Shown here one piece after another: positions 2,673-10,750 of a stretch of 19,702 nt of DNA. How positions within the stretch are numbered: position 1 is the stretch's first letter; every line of letters starts with the position of its first letter. Origin of the DNA: Candidatus Hadarchaeales archaeon. Its GTDB lineage: Archaea > Hadarchaeota > Hadarchaeia > Hadarchaeales > Hadarchaeaceae. The notes beneath the pieces were generated by a model. The model ran no database searches and was not told where the DNA came from. It was given only the letters and a program-made list of their open reading frames with translations. A program made the position numbers and the translations under genes. The stretch covers positions 1 to 19,702 of the forward strand of contig JAVZGN010000019.1 in NCBI GenBank assembly GCA_038872135.1, given 5' to 3'.

Positions 2673-3445
2673 GGATTATCAGATACTCTCAATATTTCCA
2701 GAGCCCTTTCAGGTAGTTCTTCGCGGAGTGAAAACAGCTCGACTTCTGACCTAGAGATTGTAAAGACTTTTTTACCCCCCCAGTTAGGGTTTGGAGTTGG
2801 CCGTTTTCCCTCGAAAAATTTTGGATCCAACAAGAAATATCGGTCGTTTGGAATTATCACCCACATGTAAATGATGTCCCCTTCTTTAAGCGCCCTTTTT
2901 ATTTTGGTCTCTTTCATGTCGAACGAATCCCTTTCTTCACGAGCCATTTGCAATTCTATGCGCTTAGATTTACCGGACACAGAGTACTTAAAATCGGGGC
3001 GAGTCGTAATTTTTGAGGGATTCTCCCACTCGATTACCCTATCCTTGTCGGTGCCGACAAGACTTATTTGCACATCGGGGAATGCTTTCTTCAACCGAGG
3101 AGACAACCAACCCTTATAAATTATATCCTCTACTAGCCAGCCATCGATCAAATCATAAATATACTCCTCGTCTGTGCGCCTGTTGCGAAAAAAGCTTGGA
3201 AGCCCCACACGACCCCCACTTCGAATATGGAGTAGGGCCTCGTCTAGTTTTTTCTCGTAAAATTCAATTAATTCCGAGACTATCCTCTCTTCCACCTGCC
3301 ATCGAATTGGTACTCCCTTATATTTCTCCCTGAAAGGTCGCCTAGCTTCTCCCGTAAAAGGCCATTCCCTCACATATCTCGGTAGGTTGCCGGGAGTTAT
3401 AAAGATTCTGTCACCAACTTCGGCGAGTTCTTCAGTAGAACGCAT
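2669..3445 (-). CDS. Putative type II restriction endonuclease (PD-(D/E)xK-like)
   Basis: GWLVEDII...TTRPDFKY...RIELQM gives an E...PD...ExQ pattern. The gene converges on the methyltransferase operon and the two stop codons overlap in CTAG (2669-2672). ATG at 3445 chosen because the upstream in-frame part runs into a pseudogene. Confidence 0.65.
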   Translation of the reverse strand: MRSTEELAEVGDRIFITPGNLPRYVREWPFTGEARRPFREKYKGVPIRWQVEERIVSELIEFYEKKLDEALLHIRSGGRVGLPSFFRNRRTDEEYIYDLIDGWLVEDIIYKGWLSPRLKKAFPDVQISLVGTDKDRVIEWENPSKITTRPDFKYSVSGKSKRIELQMAREERDSFDMKETKIKRALKEGDIIYMWVIIPNDRYFLLDPKFFEGKRPTPNPNWGGKKVFTISRSEVELFSLREELPERALEILRVSDNP

Positions 3446-3479
3446 ATGCCTGCTCTCTTCGGGGGATTTGGAGTAAACA

Positions 3480-3721
3480 AGCGGCCCCACTCCACTCCAC
3501 CAGTCCCGCCCACTCCGGCCCCAGCACAGTGTTGGGTATCTCCTCCGAGTAGAGCCCCCCTAAGGTACGGCAGGAAGCGGTAGAGAGGGAGCCCATGCCC
3601 ATCTCCCTCTTGAGGAGGAAGAGCTCTTGTAGCCTCACACTTCCTCCACCGTCCCACCCACAGCATAGAGGATAACTAGGATCGGCCTTTCCCTCTCCCC
3701 GCTGTGTTTCCCCTTCTTCAC
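3480..3721 (-). pseudogene. Frameshifted Panacea/SocA/YwgA-like domain remnant
   Basis: Consecutive pieces in different frames, ILVILYAVGG / RLQELFLLKRE / LYRFLPY / GLYSEEI...GLVEW, rebuild the RLQKxxFL...YxFxPYxxGPYSxE...GLV pattern. Confidence 0.55.
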
Positions 3722-3975
3722 CGACTTGGAAACCGCAGAGGCCTCCAGCTTGAGGATGGCCGCCCTCTTCCTCCCTCCGGGGTGAATTTAAGCATCTTCC
3801 TGAAGGGCCACTCCTTGGACTCTCTCTTCTGGATCAGACCCTCCTTTATGAGTTCCTTGAGCGCATTTCCGCCGTTAGGAAACTCTACCTCGGCCTGAAG
3901 CCCCCTGAGATGCTTCGGCCGCTCGAGCAAGCTGAGGAGAATCCCCGGTGTCTCGCTTCTCCTCAATCTGTACAT
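3718..3975 (-). CDS. Winged helix-turn-helix protein (HxlR/MarR-like), possibly frameshifted at its C-terminus
   Basis: ILLSLLERPKHLRGLQAEV...ALKELIKEGLIQKRE...RKMLKFTPEG matches the wHTH pattern LxxLxxxGLI...LTxxG. Confidence 0.65.
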   Translation of the reverse strand: MYRLRRSETPGILLSLLERPKHLRGLQAEVEFPNGGNALKELIKEGLIQKRESKEWPFRKMLKFTPEGGRGRPSSSWRPLRFPSR

Positions 3976-3985
3976 CCAAGGAGTG

Positions 3986-4321
3986 TCAAAGGTATTTGCT
4001 AATCTTGCTCTTGGGCACAAGCACGATATTGCCTCCTGAAAGAGTTCTAATCGAGTAACTTATCACAATATTCGCTTGAAAGCAGGCATTATTTTTCTTT
4101 GACGAGTACCTACTTCCCCATATTATGCTAGCCCAAGCAGGTTTAGTAGCCCTGCCCATAAGTGGATTCTCCAGTAATTGTCCACTTCTACTTTCCGCCT
4201 TACCAAAACTTGTACGAATCCTCCTCTGAAACTCGAACCGCGCATCTTTGGGAATCGTTGCATAGTGGCATACTCTTTCTGACACCCACAGCCTTTTTCT
4301 GAACACTATCTCTTCTGCCAT
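3986..4321 (-). CDS. Hypothetical ORF with a weakly AbrB/MazE-like N-terminus, probably degraded
   Basis: FRKRLWVSERVCHYATIPKD resembles the AbrB beta-hairpin TIPK motif. TTTAAA lies about 21-27 nt upstream of the ATG on the minus strand. The rest of the ORF is unrecognisable. Confidence 0.3.
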   Translation of the reverse strand: MAEEIVFRKRLWVSERVCHYATIPKDARFEFQRRIRTSFGKAESRSGQLLENPLMGRATKPAWASIIWGSRYSSKKNNACFQANIVISYSIRTLSGGNIVLVPKSKISKYL

Positions 4322-4459
4322 GCTTGAGTTCTGTATCTGGATTTAAATTTTACAACCTCGGCTTTGATGACATGTCGAGTTTCTCGCTTTAGCCAGTTCC
4401 GCCTCCATAAACCATCGATAAAGGAGGCGGTAAAATGTGCCTCTGGAGGTGAGGAAAGA

Positions 4460-5438
4460 ATGAAGTACATAGGGCTGGATGTCCACAAACACACTTGCCA
4501 TGCGACGGTGATGGATGAAACCGGACGAATAGTGAAGCAGGAGAGGTTCAGGAACGCATGTGAGGAATACGAGCTGTTCTTCAGAGACATCCCGGAGGCC
4601 AAGGTCGCGATGGAAGCAAGCTACTGCTGACAGCCAGTGTACGATGTGCTGGAGGCGATCGGCCACGAGGTAAAGCTGGCTCATCCGAAGAAGACGCGCA
4701 TCATCGCAGAGGCGATGATAAAAACGGATGCCAAGGACTCGGAGACCCTAGCCCATCTGCTCCGGAGCAACCTTCTCCCGACTTCTTGGGTACCCCCAAA
4801 GGAGACAAGGGACCTCAGGGAACTCGTCAGGATCAGGACATACCTAGTCAGGGAGCAGACGAGGTTCAAGAATAAATTCGCGCGGAACTCGCGAAGAGGG
4901 GTATAGTTTTCTCGGCGAGTCCGTTCGCCAAAAAGCGGAGGCAGCTTCTGACGGAGTTCGGCATTCCGACCCTAAACGAGTGTTTAGCGGTTCTGGGCGC
5001 ACTGGGACGGCGTATCCGAGAGATCTCAAAGGAGATAGAGCGTAAGGCCGAGGAGAGCGAGGACGCGAGGATGCTCATGAGCATTCCAGGGATAGGCCAC
5101 TTCTCAGCACTGGTGGTCCTGGCGGAGATGGGGACATCTCGAGGTTCCCGGACCCGGAGAAACTATGCAGCTACGCTGGCCTTGTTCCGTCGGTGCACCA
5201 GTCGGATTCAACGGTGAGACACGGACACATAACCAAGGAAGGAAGCAAGATGCTCAGGTGGGTTCTGCTGGAGTGTCTCTGGTCGCACCTGCGGTACGAC
5301 ACGCACATCACGAGGTTCTACCATCGGCCGGCGCGCAAGAAGGGCAAGAAAGTTGCAGCAGTCGCTGCGGCGCGGAAGCTACTCGTGGCCATCTACTGGA
5401 TGCTCAGAAAACGGGAGGAGTTTCACGCTCGACCGTAA
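4460..5438 (+). pseudogene. IS110 DEDD recombinase/transposase, disrupted
   Basis: YIGLDVHK, AMEA, KTDAKD, SIPGIG, SYAGLVPSVHQS, ITKEGS and VAAARKLL are all present, with GGAGGTGA upstream. There is an in-frame TGA at 4628-4630 and frameshifts near 4875-4878 and near 5130-5133. Confidence 0.93.
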
Positions 5439-5441
5439 ATC

Positions 5442-5564
5442 GGGGCGGGGGTACCTCGATTCAGAACATGCGGCTTTGAGCGCGCGGCTTTGATTGAGGG
5501 CCCTTCAAGCGCAAAACCATAGTACGGCTTAGACCGTGGATAGGTGTGTGCGCTCCGCCGCCCC
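5442..5564 (+). ncRNA. Putative bridge/seek RNA of the IS1111-type element
   Basis: A closing stem GGGGCGG/CCGCCCC encloses two hairpins with internal loops. Loop 1 segments match the insertion target and a loop 2 segment matches the element end. Folding was done by eye and the boundaries are approximate. Confidence 0.75.
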
Positions 5565-5801
5565 ATCTTTAAAAGAGGAAGCTCGAGATAAAAATGGAGC
5601 GCGGAACTAAACGCGGAAACTCAACATAGGTGTTCTGAACTCGGGAGATGTGTAGCGTAATTTTACTCCCCGGTATGTGTTTCGGCCGGAGATTCTGGAG
5701 GTTCTGAGTTCTTGCAGGCATCCTTATCAGCTCAAAGTTGCGAATCGGCCCCTGACGAATCTGCTCCCCACTACCCCAGCGCCGGCCGATGCGTCGGGAG
5801 A

Positions 5802-6656
5802 TCAGAGGCTGAGGAGCCTCAACCATGTGTTCCTTCCGAGATGCAGCTTGATCCCCGCGGCTGTTATGGGAGTGGTGCCGAAAGCCATGTGTGGCCTGAC
5901 GAAGTTGTAGAAAGCCCTGAACCCATCGAGCCATCGCTGTCCGGTCTCGCCCCGCTTGAACCCGCGCATAGTCTTCACGCGCATCCGCGTAGTCTGGATC
6001 TTCCGCTCCATGAGGTTTGTTTTCGGCAGACCTTCCCGATAGTGCAGATGCTGTTGGAGTTCGCACCGCCTCCAGCCCAGAAGCCACTTCCCGCCCTCGC
6101 GGTAGGCCTGGAGACCATCGGTGGAGAGAACACTCGGCCTTGCCCCGGCGTTTGTCAAGGCTTCTCCGAGCACCCTCTCGGCCTGCTCTGCCGTGTGCTG
6201 CCAGCCTTCGCTGATTTCGCCTGCCAGCCACAAGCGCGTGTCCGCATGCATGACCTCCCAGTCCCAGCCATCGCCGCCCACGCGCACATGCATCTCGTCT
6301 GCGCACCACTTCCCGGTGAGTAGAAGTCCGAGCTTTCGGAGAACCCCTCGCAGCAGTTCACCGAACCTCTGGGCCCACCTCCAAATGGAGGTCCAGGATG
6401 GTTGCCAGCGTGGATGATGGCGCTTGAAATGGCGTTCTGCCGCGCGCGTGGAGAGATCTTCAAAGTGTATGTCCACCGCTTGCGCCACGACTGATTTTGG
6501 GTACCAGAGACCCAAGGTTCCATCGTCTGGGACGAAACGACGCCTGCGGGTCTTGCAGAGCCAGCGCTGTTTGCGCTCAAAACGGTTATATCTCCATCCC
6601 GCCCTAACTGTATTTGCAGATTCACAGAATCTGCAGGCGGGGTGCTTCACCCACAT
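5802..6656 (-). CDS. IS6-family DDE transposase with N-terminal Zn ribbon
   Basis: CRFC...QRWLCKTR (fourth Cys replaced by Arg), HTH SWTSIWRW, WCADEMHV, LSTDGLQAY, TNLMER, RGFK and YNFVRPH. The exact start codon is uncertain. Confidence 0.9.
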   Translation of the reverse strand: MWVKHPACRFCESANTVRAGWRYNRFERKQRWLCKTRRRRFVPDDGTLGLWYPKSVVAQAVDIHFEDLSTRAAERHFKRHHPRWQPSWTSIWRWAQRFGELLRGVLRKLGLLLTGKWCADEMHVRVGGDGWDWEVMHADTRLWLAGEISEGWQHTAEQAERVLGEALTNAGARPSVLSTDGLQAYREGGKWLLGWRRCELQQHLHYREGLPKTNLMERKIQTTRMRVKTMRGFKRGETGQRWLDGFRAFYNFVRPHMAFGTTPITAAGIKLHLGRNTWLRLLSL

Positions 6657-6813
6657 CACCTTTCGGAGTCGTAGATGGCCCCCGCCTCTCACAGGCCATC
6701 AATTTTTCTATCATCTTTCACCACAATCCAGTTGGGGTGCGTCCAAAAAATCATTTCCCGAGTTTGAAACAGAGCCCAAACCTACCATCTCGAGATTTTA
6801 TGGTTATTAGCAA

Positions 6814-7020
6814 TTACACATGGGAACCCTTCTCTCTAGCGCTCAACGGTGTTGACACCATCTCCGGCTTCCAATGCTCCCCATTCTCCTTCATCCATAG
6901 AGCAATCGCCTCCTCTAGAGCCTTAGTGAGGTACCCTCGCTTCAGCCCGAACTTCTCTATCGCCATCTTCCGGAGCCTCTCCTCTCTCTCGTCGTCCAAG
7001 ATCAGTGAGATCTTACCCAC
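6814..7020 (-). CDS. Ribbon-helix-helix (CopG/MetJ-like) DNA-binding protein
   Basis: Alternating beta strand KISLILDD, helix EERLRKMA, then GYLTKALEEAIALW; 68 aa. Confidence 0.75.
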   Translation of the reverse strand: MGKISLILDDEREERLRKMAIEKFGLKRGYLTKALEEAIALWMKENGEHWKPEMVSTPLSAREKGSHV

Positions 7021-7080
7021 TCTCTCACTTTCAACTATCTGATTTTGCCCTTAAATAAGCCTCGGGCAGAAGTCCGACAC

Positions 7081-7137
7081 TGTCAGATAGGTTTATATAA
7101 GAAATTGTCGAATATCTTATTTACGATATCTGATGTC
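7081..7137 (+). promoter_or_regulatory. Promoter/operator block homologous to 782-835
   Basis: TTTATATA at 7092-7099. Manual alignment to 782-835 gives 46 of 54 positions identical plus one 3-nt indel, and both blocks end in GATATCTGATGTC. Confidence 0.6.
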
Positions 7138-7167
7138 GGACAAAAGGGAAAGAAGGCTGGCCCTGAC

Positions 7168-7475
7168 CAGATATTTTATACAAGGCTTCCGAGTTTTTTT
7201 GGGTCTTTCAAGGCCATCGCCAGGAGGAATGTCATGGGCATCTCAGCCATGTTTTCTCTGGCTGGGAACTCGATACACAATGTACACGCTCTTGCAAACA
7301 CTGTGGTTAAAACTTGCATCAACCGAGCCTCCGCTGAACAGAGCACAAGCCCATCCCCCGACACCCTTCTGAGATGTCTCAAGCAAATTGAAGAGGAACC
7401 TCCAGTTTTGATGCTTATAAAGCTCAGGTATGAGTCCTCTTGAGGGCTATACTATATGCACCTACGGGGATACTG
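7168..7475 (+). mobile_element. Internally deleted ISH3-type relic: transposase N-terminal fragment joined to the right end; left boundary uncertain
   Basis: ~7400-7475 (TTTTGATGCTT...GTCCTCTTGAGGG...TACGGGGATACTG) is homologous to ~700-778. The upstream frame encodes RASAEQSTSPSPDTLLRCLKQ, which resembles ISH3 transposase N-termini. Confidence 0.6.
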
Positions 7476-7523: not shown

Positions 7524-8783
7524 ATGAACATCCTCTACTTCCCCTTCGAGTTTCCCCCATTCTTCGTTGGGGGGCTAGGAACATATGCCTTCGAGATGAC
7601 GAGAAGGTTTGCGAAGATGGGCCACAGCGTCACGGTCATGGCAAAGAATCCTGGAGATGCCATCACCCGCGACCTCGTTGAAGGGGTCGAGGTCCACAGG
7701 CCGCTGACAGTCGACGCCATCGATATCCTCCCCATCACCGTCCCCGAAGACGTGAAGCGGTGGCCACTTCAGTCCCAGAACTACTTCTCAGAAGTCTTCA
7801 TGTACAATATCCTTTCGTCAACAAAAGCTGTAAACCTCCTCGTGAAAACCGACAAGAGAAAATTTGATATAATCGCGGCTCACGACTGGCTCGCCTCAAT
7901 CGCCGGCATCCTCTGCAAGAGGGCCCTTCAGCTTCCCCTTGTCTTTCATCTCCACTCGGTTGAGGAAGGCAGGACGGGGGACGGCTCGCCAACGATAAAA
8001 AGTCTGGAGAGGCTTGCCGGGAAAATCGCCGATCTCATCGTTACCGTGAGCTACGCCATGAGGGACCAGCTCGTCTCCCTAGGATATGAGGAGAGGAAGA
8101 TTAGGGTGGTCTACAACGGGGTGGATGAGAAAAAGTACAACCCGGCGAGATTCTCCTCCCACCAGATCTCAGAGTTCAGGGAGAGGATAGGGGTTGGAAG
8201 TAGCCCAATGCTCCTCTTTGTTGGGAGGCTCAACTGGGTGAAGGGGGCAGACACCCTGGTCAGGAGCATGCCCATCATTCTCAAAGAAGTTCCAGACGCA
8301 AAGCTTGTCATCTTGGGGAAGGGAGATCAGGAGGGCCTCATCTCAAGCCTTGTTGCCCAGCTCGGTCTCAAGGACTCTGTAAAACTCCACTACAGGTATG
8401 TGGATGAAAAAGAGAGAATCTTGTACTATGCCGCCTGCGATGTTGCGGTCTTTCCCTCAAAGTATGAGCCATTTGGAATTGTCTGCACAGAAGCGATGAG
8501 CATGGGAAAACCGGTCATCGTGGGGGCGAGGGGAGTTTCCGGCTTCAGGGAGCAGGTGGTTCCCTCCGGCCCCGGAAGGTGTGGCGCCCACATAAACCCC
8601 GACGATCCTTATGACATTGCAAAGTTTGCCATTGAAATGTTAAAGGACAAACAGCTTAGAGAAAAGCTTGGGGAAAACGCCAGAAAGAGGGTTCTTGAAA
8701 GATTCACGCTGGACAAGGTCGCGGATGAAACAATAAAAGTCTACGAGGAGGTTCTCCCAAAAGAAGGCGGAGGGTTTGGTTGA
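7524..8783 (+). CDS. Glycosyltransferase family 4 (GT-B, glycogen synthase-like)
   Basis: EFPP..VGGLG, AHDW, FVGRL...KG and EPFGIVCTEAM (E-x7-E). Confidence 0.93.
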   Translation: MNILYFPFEFPPFFVGGLGTYAFEMTRRFAKMGHSVTVMAKNPGDAITRDLVEGVEVHRPLTVDAIDILPITVPEDVKRWPLQSQNYFSEVFMYNILSSTKAVNLLVKTDKRKFDIIAAHDWLASIAGILCKRALQLPLVFHLHSVEEGRTGDGSPTIKSLERLAGKIADLIVTVSYAMRDQLVSLGYEERKIRVVYNGVDEKKYNPARFSSHQISEFRERIGVGSSPMLLFVGRLNWVKGADTLVRSMPIILKEVPDAKLVILGKGDQEGLISSLVAQLGLKDSVKLHYRYVDEKERILYYAACDVAVFPSKYEPFGIVCTEAMSMGKPVIVGARGVSGFREQVVPSGPGRCGAHINPDDPYDIAKFAIEMLKDKQLREKLGENARKRVLERFTLDKVADETIKVYEEVLPKEGGGFG

Positions 8784-10750
8784 GGCTCAGCATCGACGGT
8801 GCCCGAGACCTCGAGAATTACCTTAGGAAAGAGTGGTTGATTTCCAACGGGCTGGGGGGATATGCATCCTCAACTGTCCTCGGAATCAACACAAGAAAAT
8901 ATCATGGGCTTCTAGTGGTTCCATTTGCAGCTCCCCCGTTTTCAAGAAAACTCATCCTGGAGAAATTTGAGGAGAGGCTTGAGGGAAGAGAGGTCTTGAA
9001 TCTCTCATCCAACGAATACCCCGGGGTCATCCACCCAGACGGCTACAGAAATCTCATGAGCTACCGGCAGGACCCTCTCCCAACCTTCCATTACTCTTCC
9101 AAGAGCGGGATATCGGTGATAAAAACAGTTTTCATGCCCTATGGACTAAACGCTGTTGTTGCTGAATACTCGATTGAAAACCCGACGGGTGAAAAACTCA
9201 GCTTCAAGATTTTCCCCCTCATCAATTTCAGGGACATCCACTCTCTGACCAAGTTGGGATCTCTGAAATTTCTGGAGGAGCACGGGAAAACATACGCTTC
9301 TCTCAGCCTCAAAGGATCATCCTCCCCATTCATCACCCTATGCTCGGACCAGATGCGCTATTCTCCATCAGAGCTAGAGGAAGAGCAGAAATGGTACAAA
9401 AATTTCCTCTACAGGGAAGAGCGGGAGCGCGGGTATGATTTCATGGAGGATGCCTACTGCCCGGGAACTTTCGAGGCGGAGCTGTCATCTAAGAACACAA
9501 AAATCTTCATCGCAGCCGTGAAAGGGGGTGAAAAAGATTCCATTAAAAAGCTGATATCTCCCGAGGAACTTGAGAAGCTCAAAGAAGAGACAAAGACGAG
9601 ACTGTGGCGCCTTGTTGAAAGAAGCGGCCTGGGAATGGAGTGGAGGCATCTCTGTTGGGCAGCCGACTCCTTCATCACCGGCAACAAAATCATCGCCGGC
9701 TACCACTGGTTCTGCTGCTGGGGCAGAGACACCTCGATTGCCCTGCCAGGCCTGACCCTGGTTACCGAGAGATTTGAAGAGGCTAGAAAAATCCTCCTTT
9801 ATCTCGCCGGGAGGATGAATGGCTGGCTCATCCCCACGTGGTTCGAGGAAGATTCTGCCGGCTATGAAAGCCTAGACCCGTCTTTGTGGTTCATTTACGC
9901 TGTTCACAAATACCTCTCATATACAGATGATGTCGAGATGGCGAAAAGGATGTGGCCCATCTGCTCGGGAATTTTGAGGGCGATATCTTCCGGGAGCATC
10001 AGAGGGGTGAAATTGGAGAGGGATGGGCTTCTTTCCAGCAATCTGATCACATGGATGGATGCAAAGGTTGGGGGAGTCCCGGTGACGCCCAGAGCCGGAA
10101 AGGCGGTGGAAATCAATGCCCTCTGGTACAATGCCCTGAAAAGCGTTGCCGGCATTGGGAGAAGGATTGGAATGAGCTTTCCGCTTGGTAAGCTTGCAGA
10201 AAAAGTTAGAGAGAATTTCTTGCGGGCCTTTTGGGATGAGAAAAGGGAATGCCTTTTCGACGTGGTTGGAGGAGAAGACGGCATTCGCCCCAACCAGATT
10301 TTTGCCATCAGCCTCCCCTTCCCCGTAGTTGACACAAACACCGGAAGAAGAATAGTTGAAGCCGTGAGACGTGAACTCCTCACGGAATTTGGGCTCAGGA
10401 GCCTCTCAAAGGGTAGCCCCTTCTACAAGGGGCGATATCAGGGAAACATCATTGAAAGAGATATTGCATACCATCAGGGGACTGTGTGGAGCTGGCTTAT
10501 CGGGCCTTTCATCACGGCCTTCATAAGGACGGGTGGAAGCAGGGAAGAAGCCATGAACATCTTGAAACCTCTGATCACGACCCACCTCGAAGATGCTGGA
10601 ATTGGAACAATTTCAGAGATTTTTGATGGTGATTCTCCTCACCTTCCCAGAGGGTGCATCTCCCAAGCCTGGAGCGTTGGAGAAATCCTCCGCTGCTATG
10701 CCGAGGACATAAAAGGGTTAAAGCCGGAGTACGAGAATCTATATCGATGA
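8780..10750 (+). CDS. Amylo-alpha-1,6-glucosidase / glycogen debranching enzyme (GH133-like, archaeal type)
   Basis: EWLISNGLGGYASST, TRKYHGLL, AGYHWF..WGRDT, TWMDAK, TPRAGKAVEINALWYNAL, RPNQ, YHQGTVW, EIFDG and QAWSV. Confidence 0.95.
   Translation: MRLSIDGARDLENYLRKEWLISNGLGGYASSTVLGINTRKYHGLLVVPFAAPPFSRKLILEKFEERLEGREVLNLSSNEYPGVIHPDGYRNLMSYRQDPLPTFHYSSKSGISVIKTVFMPYGLNAVVAEYSIENPTGEKLSFKIFPLINFRDIHSLTKLGSLKFLEEHGKTYASLSLKGSSSPFITLCSDQMRYSPSELEEEQKWYKNFLYREERERGYDFMEDAYCPGTFEAELSSKNTKIFIAAVKGGEKDSIKKLISPEELEKLKEETKTRLWRLVERSGLGMEWRHLCWAADSFITGNKIIAGYHWFCCWGRDTSIALPGLTLVTERFEEARKILLYLAGRMNGWLIPTWFEEDSAGYESLDPSLWFIYAVHKYLSYTDDVEMAKRMWPICSGILRAISSGSIRGVKLERDGLLSSNLITWMDAKVGGVPVTPRAGKAVEINALWYNALKSVAGIGRRIGMSFPLGKLAEKVRENFLRAFWDEKRECLFDVVGGEDGIRPNQIFAISLPFPVVDTNTGRRIVEAVRRELLTEFGLRSLSKGSPFYKGRYQGNIIERDIAYHQGTVWSWLIGPFITAFIRTGGSREEAMNILKPLITTHLEDAGIGTISEIFDGDSPHLPRGCISQAWSVGEILRCYAEDIKGLKPEYENLYR

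Follow-up and report, generated by a model that had tools for sequence, protein, structure and literature searches.

Going by the title of a 2003 paper by Partridge & Hall (J Bacteriol 185:6371), IS4321 and IS5075, bacterial members of the IS1111 family, are said to target the terminal repeats of Tn21-family transposons. The IS1111 group as a whole is recognized (PMC11187229) by extensions of 7 and 3 nt on sub-terminal repeats of ~11–13 bp, which are a hallmark of the group, and its seekRNAs carry their target guides in an order reversed relative to that of IS110-type RNAs. According to PMC11208160, the right non-coding end of IS1111 elements exceeds the left and encodes the guide RNA, and bridge RNAs were predicted in the right end of 93% of these elements. 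IS6-family ends have a GG tip together with cTGTt and caaa motifs (PMC7986276). For archaea, 662 IS110-family recombinases have been counted (10.1101/2024.06.21.599552), and our literature search found no paper on the guides or targets of archaeal IS110-family elements, although the supplementary tables of PMC11208160 and PMC11187229 may list some. ISSso6 was considered as an archaeal precedent and rejected, as it is listed among the IS of Shigella sonnei.

We analysed a stretch of 19,702 nt from a Candidatus Hadarchaeales archaeon (hereafter the window), in which an IS1111-type element lies within the terminal inverted repeat of an IS6-type element. The features of this arrangement are as follows.

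4360–4366, minus strand: GGCTTTG, the outermost 7 bp of the IS6-type element's interrupted terminal repeat (IRR), to which the last 7 nt of the guide at 5485–5492 are identical
4365–4366: TG, the last two bases of the outer IRR piece, a core common to the insert and the IRR
4367–5632, plus strand: IS110-family, IS1111-group insertion sequence of 1266 bp, assigned by domains, ends and sub-terminal repeats
4372–4383, plus strand: ATGTCGAGTTTC, the left sub-terminal inverted repeat, lying 7 nt inside the left tip (4365)
4460–5438, plus strand: DEDD transposase pseudogene, followed by three-frame translation, its pieces aligning in order to the intact ORFs of relatives
5616–5627, plus strand: GAAACTCAACAT, the right sub-terminal inverted repeat, after which come the AGG extension (5628–5630) and the TG core (5631–5632)
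5633–5650, minus strand: TTCTGAACTCGGGAGATG, the inner remainder of the split IS6-type terminal repeat
5802–6692, minus strand: gene for an IS6-type DDE transposase, an open frame of 296 aa counted from a GTG start, with a Cys-rich N-terminus
6752–6776, minus strand: the IS6-type element's intact terminal repeat (IRL), which reads GGCTCTGTTTCAAACTCGGGAAATG from its tip

When 4360–4366 was joined to 5633–5650, the resulting 25-nt end matched the reverse complement of 6752–6776 at 20 of 25 positions without gaps. A 25-mer scan of both strands of the window without the insert returned this partner as the sole match of at least 18 besides the query itself, the runners-up being two sites at 17/25 and two at 16/25. 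TG was present at both junctions (4365–4366 and 5631–5632), and excision of 4367–5632 in silico left one continuous repeat with no extra bases and no target-site duplication beyond the shared TG core. The insertion point is located after base 7 of the IS6-type repeat, within its conserved TGT. Because the IS6-type transposase gene is on the minus strand, the interrupted repeat counts as the downstream one, which is IRR in ISfinder usage. An initial annotation of this DNA had claimed an IS1111-type insert in an IS6 terminal repeat, with a duplicated TG core and 7/3-nt spacing of the sub-terminal repeats; all three claims were borne out, the first by the margin of the restored repeat (20/25) over the next best site (17/25), and the last by spacings of 7 nt at the left tip and 3 nt at the right.

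The genome was assembled as a MAG of 34 contigs, where repeats usually end up collapsed, and cover in the single covering run was low (word depth 2–7), as might be expected if the juxtaposition were an assembly or binning artefact joining two repeats. We regard such an artefact as having almost no chance of being the explanation. Separate short Logan contigs from a single hot-spring metagenome run span the two junctions (4246–4537 and 5567–6161) without differing letters or any alternative joint. The two parts of the split end, 7 bp outside and 18 bp inside, jointly pair with the far repeat, and the guides of the insert (see below) spell both flanks, unlike what a chimera would give. The junction-spanning run is probably that of the source sample, and it counters a binning or scaffolding artefact without amounting to independent support. 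Neither an empty site nor a circle junction was seen in the contigs of three runs, of which one had cover and showed no joint or loose end, and contigs cannot show rare forms.

The probable assignment of the host element to the IS6 type draws on its transposase and on the motifs of its terminal repeats, and it is a distant one. The transposase matched Pfam DDE_Tnp_IS240 (PF13610) at 31.4 bits against a cut-off of 27, and the best NCBIfam match was IS6 family transposase (NF033587) with an E-value of 2e-22 and 79.9 bits, below the cut-off of 125; relatives of 35–39% identity span residues 18–294. The intact end (GGCTCTGTTTCAAAC...) carries the GG tip and both the cTGTt and caaa motifs, and the restored end (GGCTTTG joined to TTCTGAAC...) has the GG tip and TGTT, with tgaa in place of caaa. 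The IS6 identity of the host, as claimed initially, is favoured by the above-threshold DDE_Tnp_IS240 match, the GG tip and the two motifs. An 8-bp direct repeat flanking the IS6-type element is absent (ACAACCTC versus CAAACCTA, 5/8); this absence is not decisive, because cointegrate formation re-distributes direct repeats, as described in the IS6 review (PMC7986276). The outer 7 bp of the IS6-type end now lie 1266 bp from the remainder of that end.

Membership of the insert in the IS1111 group of the IS110 family is supported. Pfam DEDD_Tnp_IS110 (PF01548) matched two of its ORF pieces (29.1 and 50.1 bits) and Transposase_20 (PF02371) matched an ORF piece at 26.7 bits, while the NCBIfam model 'IS110 family RNA-guided transposase' (NF033542) gave 65 bits on one ORF piece and 261 bits, against a cut-off of 140, on the intact relative in L002. 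The pieces are collinear with the intact transposase ORFs of relatives (329–333 aa), from which they depart by an in-frame TGA at 4628–4630 (W in relatives) and by frameshifts near 4885–4900 and near 5134. The 12-bp sub-terminal repeats pair at 11 of 12 positions (4372–4383 with 5616–5627). The boundaries of the insert are ambiguous by the 2-nt TG core; with TG assigned to the left, following the 7/3 convention of PMC11187229, the insert covers 4365–5630 and its terminal extensions are TGATGAC (7 nt, left) and AGG (3 nt, right). The non-coding ends measure 93 nt upstream of the ATG (5′) and 194 nt downstream of the stop codon (3′), and the insert fits the IS1111 pattern in having the longer right non-coding end with a structured RNA in it (5438–5575).

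No second copy of the insert or of the IS6-type element was found in its own assembly by blastn, and the RNA model R1 described below had a single match in that assembly, at the insert. The marks of decay in the insert are the nonsense codon, the two frameshifts, an altered left-tip base and a mismatch in an RNA hairpin. The initial annotation had proposed that the host IS would be immobilised until excision; since this copy is a pseudogene and the assembly contains no second copy, self-excision of the insert is not expected.

The 3′ end of the insert contains a region resembling a bridge RNA or seekRNA, with the following parts.

5438–5575, plus strand: structured region similar to bridge RNAs and seekRNAs, within the 3′ non-coding end; it has two internal loops, each with a distal hairpin
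5459–5468, plus strand: first target guide (right-flank guide), ATTCAGAACA, match 9/10
5485–5492, plus strand: second target guide (left-flank guide), CGGCTTTG, identical to 4359–4366 (8/8)
5515–5523, plus strand: 5′ side of the donor loop, AACCATAGT, a weak match (3/4 in the window copy)
5540–5546, plus strand: donor guide ATAGGTG, identical to the insert's own right end at 5626–5632 (7/7)

The consensus fold, obtained from 10 copies, has 25 pairs, and model R1 scored 126 bits at 5438–5575. In an alignment of 28 copies, which was fitted to the RNA model and is hence biased towards structure, 92.2% of the cells were paired compared with 35–52% when the 3′ partners were slid, and changes on both sides were found in 15 of the 25 pairs; the observed values were reached by none of 500 shuffles. 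An Rfam search of 4000–7200 (E up to 1) returned no family over the RNA and two sub-threshold chance matches, sR52 and CPEB3. A single-sequence fold of 5442–5570 (z = −3.5) paired the two target guides with each other, and the consensus fold was preferred to it.

The reverse complement of the right-flank guide, TGTTCTGAAT, matches the TG core plus TTCTGAA (5633–5639) at 9 of 10 positions. In the donor loop, CCAT complements ATGG, the left-end consensus of relatives, where the window copy has ATGA, and the match of this left-end guide is weak (4 nt in relatives and 3/4 in the window copy). The right-flank guide comes first in the RNA, which is the reverse of the order in IS110-type RNAs. Together, the two target guides read only ~16 nt.

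In the relatives found in Hadarchaeia MAGs the RNA scaffold is retained, and the guides differ in step with each copy's own flanks. Of the 13 copies whose right end was readable, 10 had a guide with at least 7 consecutive nt in common with their own core plus right flank, and the remaining three matched poorly (6, 5 and 3 nt in common); among unrelated pairings of guide and right flank, 0 of 150 reached 7 nt. For the left flank, which was readable in six copies, the mean match was 6.5/8 with a copy's own flank versus 3.0 with the flanks of other copies. The donor guide equalled the copy's own right end in all nine aligned relatives in which that end was read, two of which have an AG core instead of TG, with a left flank likewise ending in AG. 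The initial annotation had proposed tabulating the flanks of other copies, and the table places related copies in other sequences, each matching its own guides. These differing flanks are natural re-programming and not a refutation of guided targeting.

Relatives with other guides sit in transposase ORFs, beside tRNA-like sequence and beside host genes. A tRNA as target was considered for three relatives that adjoin sequence resembling a tRNA 3′ end; ARAGORN called no tRNA there, and the sequences are described as tRNA-like only.

The RNA-guided targeting that the initial annotation had inferred is supported, the predicted guides matching 8/8 on the left and 9/10 over the core and right flank and co-varying with the flanks, and guidance of the insert is now backed by the sequence of a conserved two-loop RNA. 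A site chosen by protein–DNA recognition alone, with the flank-like words in the 3′ end being leftovers or chance, would be consistent with the one donor-side match of only 3–4 nt. We consider this very improbable, because guides and flanks vary jointly across copies while the scaffold is fixed, the helices show compensatory changes, and ISEc11, ISKpn4, ISPa11 and IS621 experimentally need such an RNA and can be re-programmed through it (PMC11187229 and PMC11208160). Returning to guidance by RNA, we infer that the predicted guide RNA is expressed and, by homology to IS621 and ISEc11, that the insert may share their recombination chemistry. The anatomy of the site, the guide-to-flank matches and the co-variation of guides and flanks in relatives are all legible in the sequence itself.

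We also searched for further or empty sites. The IS6-end pattern GGCTYTGTTYYRAACTCGGG (up to two mismatches) gave 13 matches in 10 of 65 genomes of the class, compared with two for the reversed control, and three of the 13 were directly upstream of IS6-type transposase fragments. The empty IS6 ends proposed as a check in the initial annotation were found in part: uninterrupted ends with one mismatch (GGCTTTGTTCTAAACTCGGG) occur in relatives, but the exact uninterrupted 20-mer was absent from the 65 class genomes, the genome contigs and the metagenome contigs, the nearest sequence being one mismatch off. A second IS1111-type copy in an IS6-type end was likewise absent from these three collections, and targeting of IS6 ends, as predicted here, rests on one insertion plus the guide match. 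The restored 14-nt target had no exact match elsewhere in the 1.08-Mb assembly, in which there is one single-mismatch site (C11:7929, unoccupied) and there are 132 sites at up to three mismatches. The conserved left-end word was found at three loci in genome contigs, all in genomes already examined, and at none in metagenome contigs. The IS6-type end pattern was found at 16 metagenome and nine genome loci, none with an IS1111-type insert; several of these loci are bacterial and look like chance matches or distant IS6 relatives.

A sister lineage of the insert is associated with the ends of a different IS family. In genome G005, the guides of the copies are TGGGTTTG and the complement of GTCGAATAAC, and GRGTTTG joined to TCGAATAAATCC is the terminal repeat of an IS5-like element of ~1.03 kb. 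This joined sequence had 66 matches in 31 of the 65 class genomes versus eight control matches, and the matches form inverted pairs 1023–1083 bp apart. The right flank of the G005 copy is 68–77% identical over 108–174 nt to the ends of that IS5-like element at six loci, and in both G005 and G012 there are related fragments whose left flank has GGGTTTG as its last bases. The junctions lie after base 7 of the IS5-like end, one being a right junction (L003) and two being left junctions (L014 and L016). GGnTTTG is a tip common to the IS6-type and IS5-like ends. The same position, after base 7, has been hit by two sister lineages in the ends of two unrelated IS families, which suggests a way in which guides could be re-programmed in nature half by half. 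It is also suggested that IS ends are favoured as safe landing sites.

A wider reading, which we put forward tentatively and think may well be wrong, is that the Hadarchaeia IS1111 clade lives mainly on other mobile elements, passes from one IS family to another by keeping its left guide (GGnTTTG) and rewriting only the right one, and acts as a set of hyperparasites that silence the elements whose ends they split. If this were true, guided elements would hold other transposons in check in archaeal genomes of very small size (~1 Mb). It is about equally possible, and in our opinion also on the doubtful side, that the target pool is any copy of the short end sequence, including mini-elements and solo ends, with no special tie to IS6 activity. 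IS6-type ends do occur on a 194-bp mini-element in G041 and metagenome contigs and as single ends without a partner in reach, the guides read so few nucleotides, and differently guided relatives occupy the transposase ORFs, tRNA-like surroundings and host-gene neighbourhoods noted above; the sole observed insertion, however, interrupts a full-length element whose transposase frame is open, and the sister-lineage flank runs 108–174 nt into IS5-like sequence. Such an undiscriminating target pool would alter only the benefit to the element and leave the mechanism unchanged.

For the locus itself, we conclude with considerable confidence that an IS1111-group element was guided by RNA into one exact position of an IS6-type end and then decayed. 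In the course of events that we propose, the element would have formed a circle with its ends joined at the TG core, and the circle would have inserted after base 7 of the IS6-type terminal inverted repeat, inside the conserved TGT. The site would have been picked by a non-coding RNA of the element itself, specified by the stretch from the transposase stop codon to the right end, with a second loop of that RNA probably reading the ends of the element (ATAGGTG on the right). Insertion would have displaced the outer 7 bp of the IS6-type end by 1266 bp, and the split end is most likely unusable by the IS6-type element, with a loss of mobility. The guided element decayed afterwards, with the lesions listed above, and because of this decay the nest is now frozen.

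The arrangement resembles that of IS4321 and IS5075 in that an IS1111-type element with sub-terminal repeats is lodged at one set position within the terminal inverted repeat of a different transposable element. Compared by description only, the two cases differ in that IS4321 and IS5075 are bacterial with a Tn21-family target, whereas the present element is from Hadarchaeia and lies in an IS6-type end of ~20–25 bp, its sister lineage being in IS5-like ends. The initial annotation knew of no described example; this holds for archaea as far as our literature search found, but not for the habit as such, which is known for the bacterial pair.

With ISEc11, ISKpn4, ISPst6 and ISPa11 (Siddiquee et al. 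2024, PMC11187229) the insert shares a DEDD transposase, sub-terminal repeats of 11–13 bp, 7/3-nt extensions, an RNA downstream of the transposase gene, the reversed guide order and the lack of a target duplication. The targets of those elements are a linear site, attC sites and REP sequences, whereas the predicted target here is the end of another IS. The predicted RNA of the insert matches no Rfam family. It is also similar to the bridge RNA of IS621 (Durrant et al. 2024, PMC11208160) in having two loops, one for the target and one for the donor, around a 2-nt core; in IS621, however, the RNA is in the left end, the core is CT and the guide order is the opposite, whereas the insert carries its RNA on the right and has a TG core, which is AG in two relatives.

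The host element, compared with the IS6 family (IS26, IS257 and archaeal clades; Varani et al. 2021, PMC7986276), has in common a DDE transposase that the IS240/IS6 models match, terminal repeats of 15–20 bp or more with the GG tip and motifs, and a Cys-rich N-terminus as in the longer members. It differs in its restored length of 1151 bp, greater than that of most members, in having one end split by the insert, in lacking an 8-bp direct repeat and in an NCBIfam score below the family cut-off.

What is new at this locus is the predicted two-loop bridge RNA or seekRNA in the 3′ end that reads both flanks and the element's own right end. It provides a natural case, from an uncultured lineage of hot-spring archaea, in which target and donor guides are fully readable, and the intact relatives in L002 and L007 (ORFs of 329 aa and 333 aa, respectively), together with their RNAs, are candidate thermostable bridge recombinases. 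The finding extends known biology and introduces no new principle: it is a clean archaeal example of a mechanism known from bacteria, combining a habit like that of IS4321 and IS5075 with the mechanism of the seekRNAs.

Removing 4367-5632 from the window united GGCTTTG (4360-4366) with TTCTGAACTCGGGAGATG (5633-5650), and the restored 25-mer matched the reverse complement of 6752-6776 at 20/25 positions, ungapped. When this 25-mer was slid along both window strands with the insert taken out, the partner at 6752-6776 was its only match of at least 18 besides itself, the runners-up reaching 17/25 (two) and 16/25 (two). The initial annotation had placed an IS1111-type element inside the terminal inverted repeat of an IS6 element, and this pairing bears the placement out. 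The features of the nest are as follows.

4372-4383 and 5616-5627: sub-terminal inverted repeats of the insert, 12 bp, 11/12 paired
4460 (ATG): start of the insert's transposase pseudogene, with DEDD_Tnp_IS110 and Transposase_20 domains on frame pieces
5459-5468: right-flank guide, first RNA loop, ATTCAGAACA; complementary at 9/10 to the TG core followed by TTCTGAA from the right flank
5485-5492: left-flank guide, first RNA loop, CGGCTTTG; same as 4359-4366 (8/8)
5540-5546: donor guide, second RNA loop, ATAGGTG; same as the element's own right end, 5626-5632 (7/7)
5802-6692, minus strand: IS6-type transposase frame, open, 296 aa, between the two host repeats
6752-6776: intact terminal repeat of the host element, reading GGCTCTGTTTCAAAC... 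from the tip

The 296-aa frame matched Pfam DDE_Tnp_IS240 (31.4 bits; cut-off 27), and its best NCBIfam match was 'IS6 family transposase' (E 2e-22; 79.9 bits, under the cut-off of 125). The intact repeat has a GG tip together with cTGTt and caaa motifs, all of which an IS6 review lists for ends of that family (PMC7986276). Once restored, the host element measures 1151 bp; its transposase gene runs on the minus strand, which places the interrupted repeat downstream of that gene. No 8-bp direct repeat was found around the element (flanks ACAACCTC and CAAACCTA), and the assembly contains it as a single copy. Upstream in the window lie genes for a C-5 cytosine DNA methylase (883-2019) and an HhH-GPD base-excision repair protein (2016-2672), followed by three ORFs without a Pfam match before the nest; a glycosyltransferase gene begins at 7524.

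The window corresponds to contig C19 in a 1.08 Mb MAG (34 contigs, 91% complete), and only one sequencing run, annotated as a hot springs metagenome, contains it. Both junctions of the insert are spanned by short contigs of this run, among which no other joint was found at either junction. The run is probably the source sample; the spanning contigs thus speak against a scaffolding artefact, yet give no independent support.

Counted with TG at its left end, the insert spans 4365-5630. Extensions of 7 and 3 nt lie outside its sub-terminal repeats, an arrangement that the seekRNA paper gives as a mark of IS1111-family elements (PMC11187229), and its non-coding ends of 93 nt upstream and 194 nt downstream are as described for the IS1111 group in a further paper (PMC11208160). 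The transposase frame is broken three times, by a TGA stop in frame at 4628-4630 (W in relatives) and by frameshifts near 4885-4900 and near 5134. In addition, the left tip shows a G-to-A change compared with every relative, and the first RNA hairpin holds a mismatch. Judged by these lesions, the guided element is decayed. Since the same assembly contains no further copy to provide transposase, the nest is most likely permanent.

To characterize the guide RNA, we aligned the 3' ends of the window copy and of relatives from related genomes (DNA match in 13/41), which revealed a constant scaffold interspersed with variable stretches. The consensus fold of ten copies has 25 pairs, which make up an outer stem plus a pair of internal loops that each contain a distal GCGGC...GCCGC hairpin. 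A covariance model built from this alignment gave 32 matches in 15/65 genomes of the class; no Rfam family was found for the window RNA. On 28 re-aligned matches, an alignment fitted to the model and hence biased towards structure, 92.2% of cells were paired (35-52% with the 3' partners slid), both-sided changes occurred at 15/25 pairs, and the observed values were reached by none of 500 shuffles. The second loop also bears CCAT, the complement of the ATGG left end of relatives; the window copy has ATGA. The right-flank guide precedes the left-flank guide, the order called reversed for IS1111-type RNAs in the seekRNA paper (PMC11187229).

A guide match in one copy might be due to chance, and relatives bear on this. 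A scaffold regular expression parsed 17 of the covariance-model matches, and the right end was readable in 13 copies, including that at locus L064. The first guide had 7-9 consecutive nucleotides in common with its own core and right flank in 10/13 copies (the remaining three shared 6, 5 and 3), whereas unrelated guide/flank pairings shared at least 7 in 0/150. The second guide matched its own left flank at a mean of 6.5/8 positions, compared with 3.0 for flanks of other copies (six copies with a readable left flank), and the donor guide equalled the copy's own right end in 9/9 aligned relatives. In two tandem copies of genome G014, AG replaces TG in the guide, the right end and the left-flank terminus. 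Programmable guides would be expected to co-vary in this way, and the matches in the window are accordingly very unlikely to have arisen by chance. RNA guidance, as the initial annotation had proposed, is thus supported at the level of sequence: by how the element is built, by its guide matches and by the way these co-vary in relatives. In the G014 tandem (L005/L087, contig C20, about 3375-5841), one CACCGAAAG stretch is read by two guides, the right-flank guide of the upstream copy and the left-flank guide of the downstream one.

The closest relatives of the insert, in genomes G005 and G012, share 70-85% DNA identity across the parts present. The guides of the G005 RNA copies are TGGGTTTG and the complement of GTCGAATAAC. 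An element of ~1.03 kb that encodes an IS5-type DDE transposase has GRGTTTG followed by TCGAATAAATCC as its terminal repeat; at up to 3 mismatches this repeat gave 66 matches in 31/65 genomes (reversed control, 8), forming inverted pairs 1023-1083 bp apart and also 120-bp mini-elements. To the right of the G005 copy, 108-174 nt of flank align at 68-77% identity with ends of this IS5-like element (six loci), and GGGTTTG ends the left flanks of related fragments, immediately before the IS1111-type left end. These guide and flank matches indicate that the sister lineage is likewise inserted behind base 7 of an IS terminus, there of a different IS family; its left guide resembles that of the window's element, and its right guide differs. 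Several relatives are preserved solely as fragments of the 5' end (about 190-320 bp), left flank still attached, at L004 (G012:C20), L016 (G005:C40), L010 (G026:C37) and L009 (G010:C2).

The IS6-type end GGCTYTGTTYYRAACTCGGG, at up to 2 mismatches, gave 13 matches in 10/65 class genomes (control, 2). Three lie immediately upstream of IS6-type transposase fragments and one belongs to a 194-bp mini-element, probably a non-autonomous derivative, between ends GGTTCTGTTTCACCTTCGGG and GGCTTTGTTCTAAACTCGGG (L117, 7666-7859, identical with L073, L131 and L168). On another contig of the window's own genome (C27) lie one degenerate end of IS6 type and two of IS5-like type (7622-7641, 9661-9679 and 10729-10747). 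Across the 65 class genomes, genome_contigs and metagenome_contigs, the exact restored 20-mer was absent in uninterrupted form (nearest, one base off), as was a second IS1111-type insert in an IS6-type end.

Roughly 14 distinct guide programmes can be told apart, and by a rough count about 6 of them lie in or at other mobile elements; some programmes adjoin ordinary host genes. Guided copies were found inside (L002) or beside (L102) IS66-family transposase genes, within an HTH-plus-integrase-core transposase gene (L064) and, at L098, ~80 nt upstream of a transposase frame of IS4/IS5 type. At L002 (G009:C53, 2595-3785) an intact IS1111-type element truncates the IS66-family frame C-terminally, and its guides match a site within the gene, not an end repeat. 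L064 (about 3620-4712 of a Hadarchaeota MAG contig) is a three-level nest, also present at L100 (G061:C42): an IS5-like element (ends GGGGCTGTCTAATAAATCC, DDE_Tnp_1 ORF) lies in the 3' non-coding end of an IS1111-type element, whose guide matches the surrounding transposase gene. In three genomes, at L086 (G024:C9), L088 (G022:C37) and L105 (G061:C90), copies adjoin a tRNA-like 3' end, with a 9-nt guide match; the right flanks, CGGGGGAG..GATTCGAAC, resemble a reversed tRNA T-arm and acceptor 3' strand. ARAGORN gave no tRNA there, and the target is tRNA-like only.

The outer 7 bp of the host end, GG tip included, now lie 1266 bp from the remainder, so the IS6-type transposase should find this end incomplete. 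The initial annotation had the host immobilized until excision: loss of mobility would be the expected consequence of the insertion, and excision is not expected, the transposase being broken and the insert a single copy.

IS4321/IS5075 are reportedly already known to insert into terminal repeats of other transposons. By homology with ISEc11 and IS621, as treated in the papers that described the guided mechanism in 2024 (PMC11187229, PMC11208160), the element would be excised as a circle closed at its TG core, which the transposase–RNA complex would recombine into a target, one RNA loop holding target and the other donor; by analogy, the insert's RNA would have been expressed and its recombination would have followed this chemistry. 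One count puts archaeal IS110-family recombinases at 662 (10.1101/2024.06.21.599552). Full-text searches turned up no paper that deals with the guides or targets of archaeal representatives, or with IS1111-type elements inserted in IS6 ends; supplementary tables of PMC11208160 and PMC11187229 may list some. Both the mechanism and the habit of landing in ends are therefore already known, and the present case extends them, with the modest addition that two sister lineages aim at the same position in the ends of two different IS families.
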